DNA of 41,242 nucleotides from a virus, in IMG/VR virus record IMGVR_UViG_3300045988_101483. One strand, given 5' to 3'. Numbering within the stretch: the first letter of the stretch is position 1; the number at the start of each line of letters is the position of its first letter. Under the pieces are notes generated by a model, which was given only the letters and a program-made list of their open reading frames with translations, ran no database searches and was not told where the DNA came from. The translations under genes were made by a program, and so were the position numbers. This document shows positions 5,549-31,318 of this stretch, piece by piece.

Positions 5549-5617
5549 AAAAAGCGCACCACTACGGCACGCTTATCCTACAAACCCAGACAAATTATAC
5601 CATAAGGAGTGGACGCA

Positions 5618-6046
5618 GTGGTGCGAGCAACGAGATATTTTAGCCCAATTGATCATGACAAAACAATTGAAAACGCCAAAGAGGTCTTGGGGAACTACTG
5701 GCATCACAAGCGGCTCGCTCAACGCACCAAAATAGCGCTCAGAAGTCCTGTGATGGACGGCATGCCCAAGTCACCTAGCTATGGCAACAATGCCGAGGAA
5801 AAGGTAATATCGCACGCTGACGAGCTGTACTATATAGCGTGCTGTGAAGGTGCTATCGAATCTCTTAACTCAGCGACTCATCGGCTTATACTAACAAGTT
5901 CTTACTTAACCAAACGATATACTGACCAGCAAATAATGGACAAGCTGTTTTTATCAAAAGCCCAGTATTATCGAACAAAACGAGAAGCGTTAATCGCATT
6001 CGCTGAAATTTGTCCATTGGTTGAAATCGAGATGAGACCTTTGTGA
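5618..6046 (+). CDS. arpU: ArpU-family phage transcriptional regulator (late gene activator type).
   Basis: Length and pattern match the family: LGNYWHHKRLA...SPVMDGMPKS...YYRTKREALIAFAE. AAGGAG at 5604-5609. The start is GTG at 5618, or 5609/5621. Confidence 0.7.
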   Translation: MVRATRYFSPIDHDKTIENAKEVLGNYWHHKRLAQRTKIALRSPVMDGMPKSPSYGNNAEEKVISHADELYYIACCEGAIESLNSATHRLILTSSYLTKRYTDQQIMDKLFLSKAQYYRTKREALIAFAEICPLVEIEMRPL

Positions 6047-6053
6047 GACCTTT
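6033..6053 (+). repeat. Tandem direct repeat TGAGACCTTT x2 with 11-bp register, overlapping the arpU stop codon.
   Basis: 6033-6042 and 6044-6053 are identical. Related copies TGAGAAACC (6093-6101) and TGAGACACC (6102-6110) follow. Confidence 0.8.
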
Positions 6054-6145
6054 CAACCGTATTTCCGTCATATGATTGTATTGTGCCAAAGGTGAGAAAC
6101 CTGAGACACCGCGTTTTTCCTCCGAGCCATGGTGATGATAAAGCT

Positions 6146-6209
6146 GTGGCAAGGCGTGGCAAATGGACTGGCTGAGATAGTCAGGCGGGTTCGATTACCG
6201 CATGCCACA
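6146..6209 (+). ncRNA. tRNA-like module 1 (degenerate; not a canonical tRNA).
   Basis: GTGGCA 6146-6151 pairs with TGCCAC 6203-6208. T-arm-like GCGGG-TTCGATT-ACCGC at 6185-6201. Anticodon-arm-like hairpin at 6166-6182. No normal D-arm. Confidence 0.4.
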
Positions 6210-6275
6210 TTGTCCAGTTTAGCGACCGGACTAACAGCTTGCGATGACCCCATCTGACACTGGGAGAGCGAGCAA

Positions 6276-6374
6276 ATCGCTGTGGCGGAGACGCTTAGCA
6301 GGTGACAGCAATGGGTATCAGTTTGCTACTGATAGTGCCCGCGGCCATGTCGGTGCAAATCCCGACCAGCGATA
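6276..6374 (+). ncRNA. tRNA-like module 2 (oversized; not a canonical tRNA).
   Basis: Perfect 7-bp ATCGCTG 6276-6282 / CAGCGAT 6367-6373. GTCGG-TGCAAATC-CCGAC at 6349-6366. Perfect 7-bp hairpin TATCAGT/ACTGATA at 6316-6334. Confidence 0.4.
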
Positions 6375-6508
6375 TACGGCCGATAATTGAGACGTTTTGC
6401 AGCGTCAACAAATTAAACCGCTATGTTAGCGCGACATAGTAAGCCAATCTGTTATGCTAGCAGATTGCAATGATAGGGCAGATGCGGCTCGCCTATCAAT
6501 GAACAGGA

Positions 6509-6590
6509 GCAACCGAAGGCCTAGCGGCTCCATAGGACAACTACCCAAGCGCACGGGCAAGTTTATCGGGTTCGAATCCCGGCGGTTGCA
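6509..6590 (+). ncRNA. tRNA-like module 3 (cloverleaf-like, but without a canonical anticodon loop).
   Basis: Perfect 7-bp GCAACCG 6509-6515 / CGGTTGC 6583-6589. Canonical-looking T-arm TCGGG-TTCGAAT-CCCGG at 6566-6582. D-arm-like CCTA/TAGG at 6520-6536. A at the discriminator position, and no encoded CCA. Confidence 0.45.
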
Positions 6591-6594
6591 TTGA

Positions 6595-6626
6595 AGCACT
6601 TCACATTATGTGGGGTGCTATTTTTA
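6595..6626 (+). terminator. Rho-independent terminator.
   Basis: 10-bp stem AGCACTTCAC/GTGGGGTGCT (two G-U pairs), loop ATTAT, followed by ATTTTTA. Confidence 0.8.
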
Positions 6627-6649
6627 TGCATATTTCAGGAGGCGAGTAG

Positions 6650-7867
6650 ATGCAATGGACAGATGAACAAATCAGTGGCATTAGGAAGCTCGCCTCTGAA
6701 GGCTTTACCAGACGAGAAACGGCAGACAAGCTCGGGATTAGTTATGATGCGCTTCAGGGCAAAGCAAGACGGCTTAGCATCGAGTTCCAAAAGCCAGTCA
6801 AGAATGAATACGATTCAGCAAAAACAGATAGAAAGAGCCAACCAGCTGACAGAAAAGTGGCTCTTAATGCTGATGGTAGTCAAACAGTCACGGCCTTAAT
6901 GAGACTCAAGCATGAGCCAAATAAAGACCCACGAACTTTGATGGAGTTGTGTGGATACGATCCTGATAAGTTCGAGATGGTATTAGGCGACTACAAAGTG
7001 TATGAGCAGCATAGTACTGAAGACGGCACAGTTCCGCAGTACAGCATTCATATTCGCGTAAAGCCGAAACAAGGCTTATCGATAAGTGAAATGGCTGAAG
7101 CGTTCAACGACAAAATCATTCCGGTCAATTACGGCATGAAGAAATCGGGCGATCGCAACTTAGTCATCCCATTGCCTGACCTGCATTTTGGCTGGACAAC
7201 ATTCGCCGATCTAAAAGACATGGTGAGCCAACTTAGAGAGATCATCATGGACGGCTACAACGAGATTGTGATCGAGCAATTGGGAGATCTATTCCATAGT
7301 GACCAGATTCATGCAACACAAACGGTTAGAGGAACGCAACTAGATCACGCAAACATGCGTCAGGCATTCCATGATGCTGTGAAGTTGTTTGATCAGATTA
7401 TTCCGCTGGCAATTGAATATAGCAATCGCGTCTCAATCAAGAGCGTTTTTGGCAATCACAGTGGAGATCTCGAATACGCTTTTCTTTATGCGCTGATAGA
7501 TCGCTATCCACAAGTACACGTTGATCTCAATGACAGTAATCCGGCAACCGACTGGCGCTGTGCATACTTGCTAGGGCATGTTGGCATTATGCTCGCCCAC
7601 GGAGATGTAGCCAAGGACAAGCTGACAGGGCTTTTTCCATTTGAGTACAAAAAGATATTCAATATGGCAAAAACTTACGAACTTCACTCAGGCCACTATC
7701 ATAGCGAGCGGTTTAAAGATGATCGTGGCATTATGTGGCGCCAGCTTGGGACGGCAAAGCCAAATGATCCCTATGAGATTAAGAACGGCTTCACCACGGG
7801 AAAACATCTGCTGTATGCGTTCGTTTATGACGACACGCGATTGAGGTGTACTTATGAACTCAACTAA
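6650..7867 (+). CDS. Fusion of an N-terminal HTH domain and a calcineurin-like metallophosphoesterase domain.
   Basis: AGGAGG RBS. N-terminal GFTRRETADKLGISYDALQGKARRL. Metallophosphoesterase motif series PDLHFG, GDLFHSD, GNHSGD, AHGD, SGHYHSE. Confidence 0.7.
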   Translation: MQWTDEQISGIRKLASEGFTRRETADKLGISYDALQGKARRLSIEFQKPVKNEYDSAKTDRKSQPADRKVALNADGSQTVTALMRLKHEPNKDPRTLMELCGYDPDKFEMVLGDYKVYEQHSTEDGTVPQYSIHIRVKPKQGLSISEMAEAFNDKIIPVNYGMKKSGDRNLVIPLPDLHFGWTTFADLKDMVSQLREIIMDGYNEIVIEQLGDLFHSDQIHATQTVRGTQLDHANMRQAFHDAVKLFDQIIPLAIEYSNRVSIKSVFGNHSGDLEYAFLYALIDRYPQVHVDLNDSNPATDWRCAYLLGHVGIMLAHGDVAKDKLTGLFPFEYKKIFNMAKTYELHSGHYHSERFKDDRGIMWRQLGTAKPNDPYEIKNGFTTGKHLLYAFVYDDTRLRCTYELN

Positions 7868-9461: not shown

Positions 9462-9956
9462 ATGCGTGTGAAGGTATGCCGCAAGGCTGGATGCAACAAT
9501 GTAATCCCGTATGATCAAGCAAACCCATACTGCGCTAAACACGCATCCCTGTATAAGCCTAACCATGCTGATGCCGCAAAGCACGTTAACCGTGACACAT
9601 CATACTATGACAAGTACAAGCGCGACAAAGAGTCTGCTGCATTCTATAAGTCTAAGATATGGGAACACACCGCACGTGATGCTAAAGCTTATGCCTACTT
9701 CACTTGTGCATGTTGTGGCAAGACCTATGACAAGCCTGGCTATCTAGTCACTGATCACATCGTGCCTTTGAGAGTTGACAGAAGCAAGTGCTTAGACCAT
9801 GACAACCTGTGGGTGCTGTGCAAAGGCTGTCACTATTGGAAGACACAGCTTGAGGACAAGATATATAAATCGCAATCACGAGTAGAAAATCTTGACACTG
9901 CGACAAAATGGACACGAGAAAAAATATCAACATGGATTCTCGCTCACAAAAAATAA
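9462..9956 (+). CDS. HNH endonuclease (terminase-associated type).
   Basis: Cys-rich N-terminus and the HNH core DHIVPLRVDRSKCLDHDNLWVLCKGCHYWKT. Positioned immediately upstream of terS. Confidence 0.85.
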   Translation: MRVKVCRKAGCNNVIPYDQANPYCAKHASLYKPNHADAAKHVNRDTSYYDKYKRDKESAAFYKSKIWEHTARDAKAYAYFTCACCGKTYDKPGYLVTDHIVPLRVDRSKCLDHDNLWVLCKGCHYWKTQLEDKIYKSQSRVENLDTATKWTREKISTWILAHKK

Positions 9957-10096: not shown

Positions 10097-10564
10097 GTGC
10101 CCGAAAATCACCCAAAATTGTCAATTTTACCCGCAAATTCTGATAAAAGTTGCTCTGATTACAACGATGATATGAAGGACATTCAGATCACACCTCCAGC
10201 TCATCTTGATGATGAAGCATCTAAGCTATGGAAAAGTTTGATACCGGAAATTAGGAAATTAGGGTATTTAAAAAAAGTCGATCAACCAGAGCTTGAAATG
10301 TATTGCGTCTATTATTCTATGTTTTTGAAATCAGAGGATCTTGTTGCTAATGAGGGAATGTGGCTGCAAGATAAGCTTGGCCAGTCAGCGAAGCGCTCTC
10401 CGGGAGCTGTTCAAATGGACTCTTGTGTGAAGAACATGAAGTCGTTAGGACATGATTTAGGTCTTACGTTTGATTCTGGACTACGCCAGATCACTGTTGA
10501 AGAGCCAGAAAAGCCTAAGCAAAATAGTCCATTGAAGGAGGTTGGGTTTGGTGCGGACGTTTGA
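10097..10564 (+). CDS. terS: Terminase small subunit (P27-like family).
   Basis: AAAGGAGG RBS 8 nt before the GTG. Size, position and the pattern PAHLDDEASKLWKSLIPEIRKLGYLKKVDQPELEMYCVYY. Confidence 0.8.
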   Translation: MPENHPKLSILPANSDKSCSDYNDDMKDIQITPPAHLDDEASKLWKSLIPEIRKLGYLKKVDQPELEMYCVYYSMFLKSEDLVANEGMWLQDKLGQSAKRSPGAVQMDSCVKNMKSLGHDLGLTFDSGLRQITVEEPEKPKQNSPLKEVGFGADV

Positions 10565-30145: not shown

Positions 30146-31318
30146 TCAAAGCCGATCCATGGCAGCCGTGGCTTTTAGAGCTTCCTTCTTTTTTTGAGAG
30201 TCTAAAAGATGACCGTATACTCGCATCGTAATTGTGATATCTGAATGACCAAGGCGTTTTGAGATGTAATAGATGTCAATGCCCTGACTAATTAGGTAGC
30301 TAACGTGGCTATGACGTAGGCCGTGGAAAGTGATTTGCTTTTCTTTTGGGATCCTCGCTTCGTCTTGCAAAATCGCAAGTGCCTTATTACAGGCTGTATC
30401 AGTAATGACCGTGTGCCACTGATTACGCATGATCATTTGATCGGGATCTCGGTATCCAGTTCGCAGATATGCTGCCATCTGTTCTTGATGAACTTGTTCG
30501 AGTAGCTTAATAACGGCGGGGGAGACTTCAATATCACGTACAGACGATTCCGTTTTAGTCGGCTTGAATCCAGTCCCGTACTGGTGGTCCCAAGAACGAG
30601 TAACATGTATCACGTTGGTCGTGGTATCTATATCGGGCCACGTTAGCGCTAGAACCTCTGAAACCCGCATGCCTGTCATTGCACCTAGATAAACTGCAAA
30701 CGCTCCTATGCTTCGATATGAAGCCTTCTCGGCCGCCTCAGACTTAACCTGCGCAAAGGCGTCTTGATCAAGCACTTTGACTTTGCTTCCTGAACGGATT
30801 CCACCAACCTTGGCACCAAAAGTGAAGTCAGAAAAGAGCAGACGGTCATTGATGGCTGCCTTAACCATTGACCGGACGTAGCTATTCATCTTGCTAACAA
30901 TATCCTTTGAACGTTCGCGTGGACCTTTGCGTGTGGTCTCTTTCTTGCGGTCCTTACCAGCGGCAAAGTCGTTCAAGAAACGTTGCCATTCGATTGGACG
31001 GATTGAGCCAAGCTCACGACCGTCAAAACGCGACTTCAGATGTTTTCTTAGCAACGTGTATCTATATTCAGTATTGAGGGACTTATCGCCTGATTTATAG
31101 GCATCAATCCATTGATCCCAATAATCCAAAAACAGCGTTCCAGCTTTTGAAGGATCGCCACCGCGTTTGAGGTCATCTTCCACAGCTTCTGCAGCATCTT
31201 GCGCAGATGATTTCAACCGATACCCACCGTGTGAAGCAACCAACTGTTTACCGGCGGAATCCGTATACTTAACTCGGTATTCCCAATACTTGCCGCGTTT
31301 CCTAAATGTTGCCATCAT
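30146..31318 (-). CDS. int: Tyrosine integrase (site-specific recombinase).
   Basis: AAGGAGGTG RBS. C-terminal catalytic pattern HGLRHSHVSYLISQGIDIYYISKRLGHSDITITMRVYGHL. Confidence 0.92.
   Translation of the reverse strand: MMATFRKRGKYWEYRVKYTDSAGKQLVASHGGYRLKSSAQDAAEAVEDDLKRGGDPSKAGTLFLDYWDQWIDAYKSGDKSLNTEYRYTLLRKHLKSRFDGRELGSIRPIEWQRFLNDFAAGKDRKKETTRKGPRERSKDIVSKMNSYVRSMVKAAINDRLLFSDFTFGAKVGGIRSGSKVKVLDQDAFAQVKSEAAEKASYRSIGAFAVYLGAMTGMRVSEVLALTWPDIDTTTNVIHVTRSWDHQYGTGFKPTKTESSVRDIEVSPAVIKLLEQVHQEQMAAYLRTGYRDPDQMIMRNQWHTVITDTACNKALAILQDEARIPKEKQITFHGLRHSHVSYLISQGIDIYYISKRLGHSDITITMRVYGHLLDSQKKKEALKATAAMDRL

Follow-up and report, generated by a model that had tools for sequence, protein, structure and literature searches.

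What kind of element occupies the long gap between a late regulator gene and the genes that follow it in a Lacticaseibacillus siphophage? The region in question spans positions 6047–6626 of the IMG/VR virus record IMGVR_UViG_3300045988_101483, a stretch of 41,242 nucleotides (nt) that is called the window below and was analyzed at its full length. The region lies directly after an arpU-family gene, and an earlier reading of the sequence alone (the original prediction) had proposed a single ornate noncoding RNA, composed of three transfer RNA (tRNA)-like units and closed by a terminator, that fitted the ROOL and GOLLD classes. The stretch is not one large RNA. It is probably a "tRNA slot" with which the late-gene region opens: a conserved box, an array of non-decoding tRNA-derived modules, and a closing terminator. 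This reading is built on the observed anatomy, mosaicism, family membership, covariation, and genomic context, to which a putative promoter, predicted processing, and a proposed biological role are added. Units 1 and 3 represent lineage-specific tRNA-like families, and the family of unit 2 consists of L-shaped tRNA-Leu mimics and is widely distributed among phages.

A covarying family of tRNA-Leu-like RNAs

The relatives of unit 2 in Lacticaseibacillus phages start with ATCGCTG-UG-GCGGAAUAGGUAGACGC and end with GUCGGG-UGCAAAU-CCCGAC-CAGCGAU-A, and enclose a hypervariable interior of 29–59 nt (16 distinct interiors among the Lacticaseibacillus loci). Copies of the same type were found in other genera, having different yet complementary stems. 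As the stems differ and stay complementary, IMG/VR was scanned with the two loops only (GGAATAGGTAGAC, 28–58 nt, GGTGCAAATCC), and at least 105 distinct elements were obtained from many unrelated contigs.

Covariation was an unbiased test of the fold, because the stems had played no part in the selection of the members. Standard pairs filled 97.9% of the cells in 72 scaffolds, compared to 71.7% in shuffles and 29–40% in slid controls, and both sides of a pair had changed in 326 cells of the same scaffolds (91.5 in shuffles). The covariation score was 0.74 against 0.20 in shuffles, and none of the 500 shuffles reached it. Double changes were observed in all seven acceptor pairs, two of the three D-stem pairs, and four of the six T-stem pairs. 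The same scaffold was recovered independently by RNAalifold from 34 full-length elements, with 13 of 16 pairs being compensatory. Unit 2 is thus a member of a large, covariation-supported, and unrecognised tRNA-like family.

The scaffold consists of a 7-base-pair (bp) acceptor, a 3-bp D stem of class II (tRNA-Leu-like) with the loop AAUAGGUAGA, an A-rich linker that replaces the anticodon arm, usually a single long hairpin that stops 2 nt short of the T stem, and a T arm with a 6-bp stem and a UGCAAAU loop. The acceptor and the T stem together make a 13-bp stack. An anticodon arm hidden in the interior was considered and rejected, as the constrained folds gave the A-rich linker and one long hairpin with no 7-nt anticodon loop.

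The acceptor/D-arm sequence of Escherichia coli tRNA-Leu is GUGGCGGAAUUGGUAGACGC, to which UG GCGG AAUAGGUAGA CGC of the unit-2 type can be compared. The 3-bp D stem, the long extra arm next to the T stem, and a discriminator base that is mostly A are further likenesses to tRNA-Leu. The differences are the missing anticodon arm, the G at the psi55 position of the UGCAAAU T loop, and the 6-bp T stem with the resulting 13-bp acceptor/T stack. None of the 105 elements was called as a tRNA by ARAGORN at default settings, and Rfam, when run on seven loci with intact unit-2-type copies, gave nothing at the elements.

Elements of this family are typically preceded by ArpU-, RinA-, or Alt-like regulators and followed by HNH, TerS, TerL, or GcrA-like genes. 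Among the 75 elements with enough flanking sequence, a canonical tRNA on the same strand was present within 700 nt upstream in 15 and downstream in 16; some of these tRNAs were just 5–8 nt from the element, and one element was located in an array of nine canonical tRNA calls within 700 nt. Unannotated copies were found in Listeria phages (PSA, LP-030-2, LP-101, and others) and in Leuconostoc phages (LLC-1, phiMH1, LN34 and its relatives). BLAST searches with two uncultured-phage loci (L310 and L245) were uninformative about their hosts.

Two side observations were made on these modules. In a Listeria-phage-like contig (L242, 2062–2536), a minus-strand unit-2-type element (2266–2341) is flanked by a match to the Listeria sRNA rli62 (76.3 bits, slightly short of its gathering score of 83) and by the mcrA RNA motif (75.1 bits, above its gathering score), which share one strand and precede an endonuclease gene. 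T loops of the form UGCAANU, with G at the psi55 position, are shared by several module families that have nothing else in common (the GCGAGCA type, the 45-nt GTGGCTG mini module, the 69-nt GCAACCG type, and the unit-2 type), and the canonical phage tRNAs neighboring such modules retain UUCRANU.

The units of the window

The three tRNA-like units were located where the original prediction had placed them. ARAGORN called no genes in the whole window at default settings, and at 80% thresholds it returned three tRNA-like folds, ending at 6209, 6374, and 6590, with odd loops; they had been described as tRNA-like elements and not decoding tRNAs, with which these results agree. No canonical tRNA cloverleaf with a 7-nt anticodon loop was recognised in the window by ARAGORN at default settings or by Rfam at gathering score. 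The 7-nt acceptor strands are perfectly complementary in all three units (Table 1). T loops of the GGTTCGAWTCC type were located at 6188 (unit 1) and 6569 (unit 3), a motif that had four matches in the whole window when one mismatch was allowed (0.78 expected), and in both units a 7-bp acceptor is stacked on a T arm with a GTTCRANYC loop.

A covariance model defined here for the unit-2 family (R1) matched unit 2 over its full length (model positions 1–97) with 38.4 bits and an E value of ~5e-8. The next best match in the window had 11.5 bits; unit 3, with 8 bits, is not a member. The context in the window is that of the family, with arpU upstream and HNH, TerS, and TerL genes downstream. Intact members score 65–81 bits, and the window copy carries two lesions. 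Its D arm reads GGCGGA-------GACGC, with 7 loop nt missing (~6290), and the D loop GGAAUAGGUAGAC on the covarying 3-bp stem is absent; in the T arm, the loop and the acceptor are intact and one G of the 5' strand of the T stem is missing (GTCGG instead of GTCGGG, ~6353). In unit 1, a C-to-A change at 6197 replaces the G53:C61 pair with a G.A mismatch. The intact T-arm/acceptor sequence of unit 1, GGGTTCGATTCCCGCATGCC, was found in 185 other loci and the window variant in none. All these lesions are absent from the 185 other copies of unit 1 and from 39 other copies with the same T stem as unit 2. The changes at 6197, ~6290, and ~6353 reflect either decay in this lineage, by which units 1 and 2 may be impaired, or sequence errors.

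Folding gave a mixed picture. Against shuffles, the whole region had a z of −1.35 (plus strand) or −0.45 (minus strand), so "highly structured", as it had been described, is an overstatement. Unit 1 had z = −2.8 (−3.3 for the L203 copy with an intact T arm), unit 2 −1.5, the hairpin spacer −1.0, unit 3 −1.2, and the 6209–6275 part of the preceding conserved block −2.1. The predicted hairpins between the units and the strong terminator were both confirmed, by the minimum-free-energy fold and the z of the terminator (Table 1). The latter (stem-loop 6595–6619 and T run) is the strongest plus-strand terminator in the first 13 kilobases (kb).

The spacer between units 2 and 3 is shared with nine loci and has four distinct versions, including that of the window. 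Against the relatives, two double changes in the window spacer hairpins are compensatory, and one relative has a further C-to-T change after which a U.G pair forms on the plus strand only; the hairpins therefore look maintained as plus-strand RNA. The D and anticodon regions of unit 3 are non-canonical. Members of its family in the relatives are 53–95 nt long, and their acceptors have changed from C-G through U.G to U-A and from G-C to A-U.

Tests against known RNA families

ROOL and GOLLD RNAs are phage-borne, occur in Lactobacillales and their relatives, often adjoin tRNA genes, and have no known function. The region shares the phage location, the Lactobacillales setting, the proximity of tRNA genes, and the lack of a known function with these classes, and its size and its association with tRNA-like sequence also speak for a single large ornate RNA of this kind, with no tool result behind it. 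Rfam 15 gave no family at gathering score anywhere in the window, including the ROOL, GOLLD, tRNA, and tmRNA models that had been suggested as a check. At E values up to 10, three chance-level matches were obtained in 5900–6750 (Plastid-ycf2 on the minus strand, tRNA-Sec, and a snoRNA), none of them to ROOL or GOLLD. No tmRNA (tRNA-like domain and tag frame) was found in the window by either ARAGORN or Rfam.

Here, the pieces are small independent modules of 45–113 nt without an Rfam match, whereas ROOL and GOLLD have a conserved fold of 500–800 nt. No multi-domain fold is shared as a unit by the relatives: the pieces of the proposed ~580-nt RNA are independently present or absent in near-identical phages, the intergenic length varies from 283 to over 1000 nt, and the overall z is unremarkable. 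Membership in ROOL or GOLLD is already refuted, and a single large ornate RNA of their kind has become a negligible prospect.

The most telling of the weak matches were that of tRNA-Sec on unit 1 (17.6 bits) and, on the minus strand, that of a plastid tRNA-like leader at unit 3. Like the unit-2 type, tRNA-Sec has a long extra arm and an acceptor and T stem that stack to 13 bp. The match to unit 1 is, however, far under the gathering score of 47, the stack is divided 7/6 and not 8/5 as in bacterial tRNA-Sec, the D arm is Leu-like, and the anticodon arm is absent.

A mosaic slot downstream of arpU

Relatives were collected by BLAST against phage genomes, which gave 45 Lacticaseibacillus phage records (A2, J-1, PL-1, Lrm1, phiAT3, T25, LJ, and JNU_P10 among them). 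Eighty IMG/VR loci were added via ArpU, and more were fetched via the unit-1 pattern. The Lactobacillales-type host that had been suggested is thereby specified as Lacticaseibacillus. The array always lies directly downstream of an arpU-family gene.

The 5' part of the region, block A (Table 1), was present in 73–83 of the first 88 related loci with ~91–96% identity, and overall in more than 170 Lacticaseibacillus phage loci in 94 distinct versions. It is conserved at ~95% even where the 3' half of arpU has diverged. In contrast, 6277–6600 was present in 5–16 of the first 88 loci and is swapped in and out between near-identical phages. Among ~120 distinct versions of the intergenic region, the plan was constant in those inspected: block A, zero to n tRNA or tRNA-like modules, an intrinsic terminator, and the ribosome-binding site (RBS) of the next gene 10–20 nt further on.

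The first scan for modules, which asked for six or more of the seven acceptor pairs and accepted G.U, was too permissive to prove pairing alone, and reliance was therefore placed on perfect 7/7 Watson-Crick stems and on the loop-selected test of the unit-2 type. A strict scan of the 120 distinct intergenic versions, 73.5 kb in total, found 238 modules (3.2 per kb), compared to four weak matches in 81 kb for the rest of the window. The modules have ~10 different acceptor sequences, most of them with 7/7 Watson-Crick pairs, and number one to four per phage. ARAGORN-positive tRNAs occupy the slot in some relatives: a 71-nt Leu(taa) in A2, Met(cat) in Lrm1, Val(tac), and a canonical Ile(tat), all unannotated in the records examined.

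Side observations in the relatives concern annotation and inserted genes. Small hypothetical proteins are annotated over block A or the modules (A2 ORF51, L002 2574–2753; J-1 gp56, L008 1586–1735; LJ_27, L004 1579–1908; phiAT3 ORF48, L007 1522–1734); these small open reading frames (ORFs) are probably spurious. The published records of A2 (L002 2719–2789) and Lrm1 (L003 2979–3051) have no tRNA or tRNA-like annotation at the positions given. Morons with canonical TTGACx-17-TATAAT promoters were seen in some relatives, after the array terminator in some and after a tRNA-like module in others (loci with such oddities are L029, L041, L129, L039, L113, and L040); L039 has a HicA-like ORF, and an insertion in L040 interrupts block A at a point corresponding to ~6150 of the window.

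Block A also invites an explanation at the DNA level, in which its repeats (TGTGCCA at 6082, TGTGGCA at 6145, CGTGGCA at 6155, and the inverted TGCCACA at 6203) are binding sites for ArpU or another protein and the acceptor helix of unit 1 is a by-product. Four TGTGGCA-like heptamers in block A, two of them 10 nt apart, and a conservation that is uniform and not limited to helices are consistent with this. However, a perfect tRNA T arm lies between the heptamers in 185 loci; L033, L043, and L085 have other tRNA-like modules at this place, not other repeats; and prophages of other genera have tRNA or mini tRNA-like elements there with unrelated acceptor sequences. DNA-level signals are, accordingly, a quite improbable account of the block.

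Decay of tRNA genes is a more serious alternative, and the original prediction had named it as an outcome that would count against a large RNA. The slot would be a recombination-prone landing pad for tRNA "morons" and all three units functionless pseudogenes, with their conservation due to recent shared ancestry and to recombination at conserved tRNA motifs. Several findings fit this: canonical tRNAs fill the slot in relatives; units 1 and 2 of the window bear private lesions; none of the three window units passes ARAGORN at default settings; and module content varies between near-identical phages. Recombination within conserved tRNA motifs was visible, as L041 has a chimeric unit 1 and unit 1 of L033, L043, and L085 is replaced by other tRNA-like modules; truncated 5' remnants of modules are common. 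On the other hand, the unit-2 type retains its three helices through hundreds of compensatory changes across genera and never has an anticodon arm, which indicates selection for a non-decoding fold, not decay. Block A keeps ~95% identity despite differing arpU alleles, the window spacer hairpins show the two double changes described above, and the mini modules retain acceptor pairing via U.G intermediates and double changes. Functionless remnants throughout are therefore possible but not the favored explanation. The outcome named in the original prediction applies in part, given the real tRNA genes in relatives' slots and the private lesions of units 1 and 2.

The slot in other genera and the promoter-like box

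Alignment of ArpU led to 13 prophage loci in GTDB genomes. Where ArpU was 28–41% identical, a canonical tRNA-Asn started ~135 nt after arpU in two Lactiplantibacillus species and in a metagenome-assembled genome of a Lactobacillus sp.; in the former two, Ser, Trp, or Ile came next. Mini tRNA-like elements (acceptor and T arm, 38–70 nt) were found at the same place in prophages of Lentilactobacillus, Secundilactobacillus, and Lapidilactobacillus. Judged from these sequences, the post-arpU tRNA slot is older than this phage group.

Conservation across loci begins at a box just after arpU, even where the 3' half of arpU differs. In the Lacticaseibacillus group, the box has the form ATGGTATTGT or ATTGTATTGT. 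Among the 13 genome-derived loci, seven have a TTGGTATTRT-like box 30–85 nt after arpU; these seven belong to distant Lactobacillaceae genera, and the background is 2 of 64 and 0 of 206 bins. Short direct repeats stand in front of the box (TTCCG five times in L213 and L215, TGCGA in L214, RCCGG in L221). In the first 100 nt after arpU in L212–L221, the box resembles an extended −10 element; the box is no sigma-A consensus promoter. A probable interpretation is an ArpU-dependent late promoter, in which case transcription may start near 6090–6093. If the box is the late promoter, the late transcript would begin with the array, as its first genes or its leader, and the late genes would depend on readthrough of the terminator.

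The terminator stands immediately before the downstream RBS, whatever the gene, in essentially all the shorter versions inspected from the ~120 distinct ones. Two terminator types were distinguished among the versions (examples are L013, L070, and L089). The second type has an upstream ATATCACCTCAA whose complement, TTGAGGTGATAT, is the Shine-Dalgarno region downstream, so that the terminator hairpin is clamped by an anti-Shine-Dalgarno helix. The placement of the terminator and this clamp suggest that the late genes may be controlled by readthrough or antitermination.

These features raise the question of whether the region is a cis-acting leader of the late operon, laid out as lambda Q-PR'-6S-tR'. 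Block A and the terminator would be the control region, and a short transcript from a promoter just behind the regulator gene would stop at the terminator unless ArpU or an RNA element made the polymerase terminator-resistant, and the tRNA-like units would be passengers or processing signals. The position of the terminator directly before the first downstream RBS agrees with such a leader, as do the conserved box with its short direct repeats just after arpU in several genera and the complementarity of ATATCACCTCAA to the Shine-Dalgarno region in one terminator type. In addition, the terminator leaves no room for a promoter after it, and the sigma-A-like matches downstream are at chance level. 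Yet the literature on ArpU and antitermination gave no support, the unit-2 family also occurs in ordinary multi-tRNA arrays far from such a leader, and the sequence from box to terminator is hypervariable, unlike a dedicated antitermination RNA. A leader of this type was judged unlikely as the explanation of the region, for which the tRNA slot is preferred.

Features and flanking genes of the window

The positions of the features are collected in Table 1.

Table 1. Features in and around the post-arpU region; positions are those of the window
Feature	Position	Strand	Description or basis
arpU-family late regulator gene	5609..6046	+	Pfam DUF1492, E = 5e-6; relatives annotated ArpU
Promoter-like box TTTCCGTC then (T/G)GTATTGT	6062..6085	+	Conserved across loci
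Block A, conserved 5' block including unit 1 and hairpins 6212–6231 and 6237–6273	6062..6276	+	Locus comparison
Unit 1, 65-nt tRNA-like module	6145..6209	+	Acceptor TGTGGCA/TGCCACA; anticodon-arm-like hairpin 6169–6185; T arm 6185–6201
Unit 2, damaged member of the anticodon-less tRNA-Leu-like family	6276..6374	+	Acceptor ATCGCTG/CAGCGAT; variable arm; UGCAAAU T loop
Spacer with four hairpins (6391–6406, 6420–6440, 6445–6467, 6468–6501)	6374..6508	+	Minimum-free-energy fold
Unit 3, 82-nt tRNA-like module	6509..6590	+	Acceptor GCAACCG/CGGTTGC; canonical T arm TCGGG-TTCGAAT-CCCGG; discriminator A
Intrinsic terminator, 11-bp stem, 3-nt loop, T run	6595..6626	+	z = −4.75
RBS (GGAGG) and start codon of GcrA-like 405-amino-acid (aa) gene	6637..6652	+	Sequence, ORF, Pfam

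The gap between the stop codon of arpU and the next start codon (6047–6649) has no plus-strand ORF longer than 48 aa, in line with the earlier statement that it holds no credible gene. The two longest small ORFs (42 and 48 aa) were dropped as coding candidates, as neither had a Pfam match and their frames are disrupted by indels among relatives.

The gene after the array (6650–7867) is too close to the terminator to leave room for a promoter. In its 405-aa product, the Pfam match to GcrA is confined to residues 1–87, and metallophosphoesterase-like motifs (GNHSGD, GHVGIMLAHGD, HSGHYH) were noticed by eye in the rest. The gene follows the array in 63 of 88 loci and is also located 3' of unit-2-type elements in other phages. 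Pfam placed HNH at 9462, TerS at 10097, and TerL at 10542, that is, 3.4 kb downstream of the array. The region does lie between the late regulator and late genes, as had been proposed; the packaging genes are at that distance and not adjacent.

A strong hairpin with flanking A and T runs at 5552–5574, just 5' of arpU, was scored as a minus-strand terminator; it may be bidirectional and separate arpU from the upstream genes. Two sigma-A-like matches (10/12) were seen on the minus strand inside the region (6162–6135 and 6499–6470), one of which would transcribe antisense to the 3' end of arpU; promoter-like matches overall were at chance level.

Two further candidates were tried and rejected. 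A cos or pac site is incompatible with the cohesive ends of A2 and PSA, which are elsewhere, and with the distance to the terminase genes of the window. A tRNA fragment of the attP type was rejected because every unit has both acceptor strands and the integrase gene is 24 kb off (30146–31318).

Proposed function and relation to known systems

For the tRNA slot, the following course of events is proposed. The conserved box after arpU would drive transcription of the array, and the modules would be co-transcribed, as in established tRNA biology. A 3' CCA that is not encoded, with a trailer starting with T, is the pattern of RNase Z substrates in Bacilli. No CCA is encoded in the 105 + 108 distinct modules, and the first trailer base is mostly T; on these grounds, RNase P and RNase Z would release the modules like tRNAs, to be followed by CCA tailing. 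The terminator abutting the first gene of the late region would close the array.

The most likely role would be that of a non-translating tRNA mimic made late in infection. As a decoy or sponge, such a mimic could draw off host factors by which the acceptor/elbow half of tRNA is bound or attacked, and tRNA-targeting defense toxins or processing and charging enzymes are possible targets. A mimic or decoy for factors recognizing this half is the preferred function, although weakly supported. A ribosomal role is at odds with the 13-bp stack and the missing anticodon arm, and the Leu-type D arm makes leucylation of the unit-2 type conceivable.

A number of observations weigh against this interpretation. 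The discriminator is A in 58 of 90 scaffolds (~64%) and in the window, a proportion that weakens a simple leucylation model. Individual modules are dispensable, since a phage has between one and four of them. Covariation in block A was uninformative, as there is too little variation (covariation term −1.05), and several relatives have uncompensated stem changes or a chimeric unit 1. Compared to every other copy seen, unit 1 of the window is damaged by C61A and unit 2 by its deletions in the D loop and the T stem, which fits decay as well as function. No specific decoy target was indicated by any test made, and the promoter, the co-transcription, and the processing are all predictions.

Phage tRNA clusters and tRNA mimics themselves are already known kinds of elements. 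In the Stx phage 933W, ileZ-argN-argO are located downstream of Q/PR'. As in such late-leader clusters, tRNA-type genes follow a late regulator here, precede the late genes, and stand beside a terminator, and relatives of this phage have decoding tRNAs in the slot. Unlike those of 933W, the modules here are non-decoding, have no canonical anticodon arms, and are rejected by ARAGORN and the Rfam tRNA model, and the regulator is of the ArpU type, not Q.

The mimicry of the acceptor and T arm is shared with non-decoding tRNA mimics (T4 species 1 and 2, plant mitochondrial t-elements, mascRNA, the tmRNA domain, and YrlA), which likewise lie within or beside tRNA genes and are presumed to be processed by RNase P/Z. 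The tRNA-like domain of the bacterial Y RNA YrlA is a non-decoding tRNA mimic (PMC4201824). The modules differ from all these in having no sequence or covariance match to any Rfam family, including tmRNA and Y-RNA-like families, and the unit-2 family is set apart by its Leu-type D arm, its G55 T loop, and its hypervariable arm.

Neither Rfam 15 nor the searchable literature (ArpU/tRNA, antitermination, prophage tRNA-likes, loop motifs) describes these elements. Apparently undescribed are the arpU-proximal tRNA slot, the arrays of non-decoding acceptor/T-arm modules, and, above all, the anticodon-less tRNA-Leu-like family. An uncurated catalogue from 2023 with ~10,000 candidate viral RNAs (PMC10690425) might include the unit-2 family. 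The original prediction had held that, if neither ROOL nor GOLLD, a triple tRNA-mimic RNA in this place would be novel; novelty is borne out in that unit 2 belongs to a large covarying family that Rfam and ARAGORN do not recognise, and the triple RNA has given way to independent modules.

Implications for phage biology

Why phages carry tRNA genes is an old question, on which this locus bears, and phage tRNA genes have been argued to counter tRNA-targeting host defenses (PMC10264068). In an entire lineage of Lactobacillaceae phages, the first place behind the late regulator gene is set aside for tRNA-type genes, and many of the genes in this slot have abandoned decoding yet retain the acceptor/T-arm half. 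The significance for the window itself is smaller, because its units 1 and 2 are damaged. For known phages, the comparison adds unannotated RNA genes (the unit-2 type in PSA and LN34, the tRNA type in A2 and Lrm1) and flags several annotated "hypothetical proteins" as probable artefacts.

The strongly covarying non-decoding family spans Listeria, Leuconostoc, and several Lactobacillaceae genera; it is missed by tRNA finders and absent from Rfam 15, and it gives a concrete RNA for decoy and mimic hypotheses. As a tentative proposal, the unit-2-type RNAs could be a functional and undescribed class of tRNA mimics in phages of Bacilli, decoying or titrating factors that act on the upper half of tRNA. 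If this is true, RNAs with a 13-bp stack, a G55 T loop, and a hypervariable arm would be made from late transcripts or tRNA arrays, and their targets would be, e.g., defense toxins that modify the acceptor end or cleave tRNA, LeuRS, or processing enzymes. The hypervariable arm would then diversify under an arms race, and the arrays of mini acceptor/T-arm helices after arpU would represent the same strategy in a minimal form.

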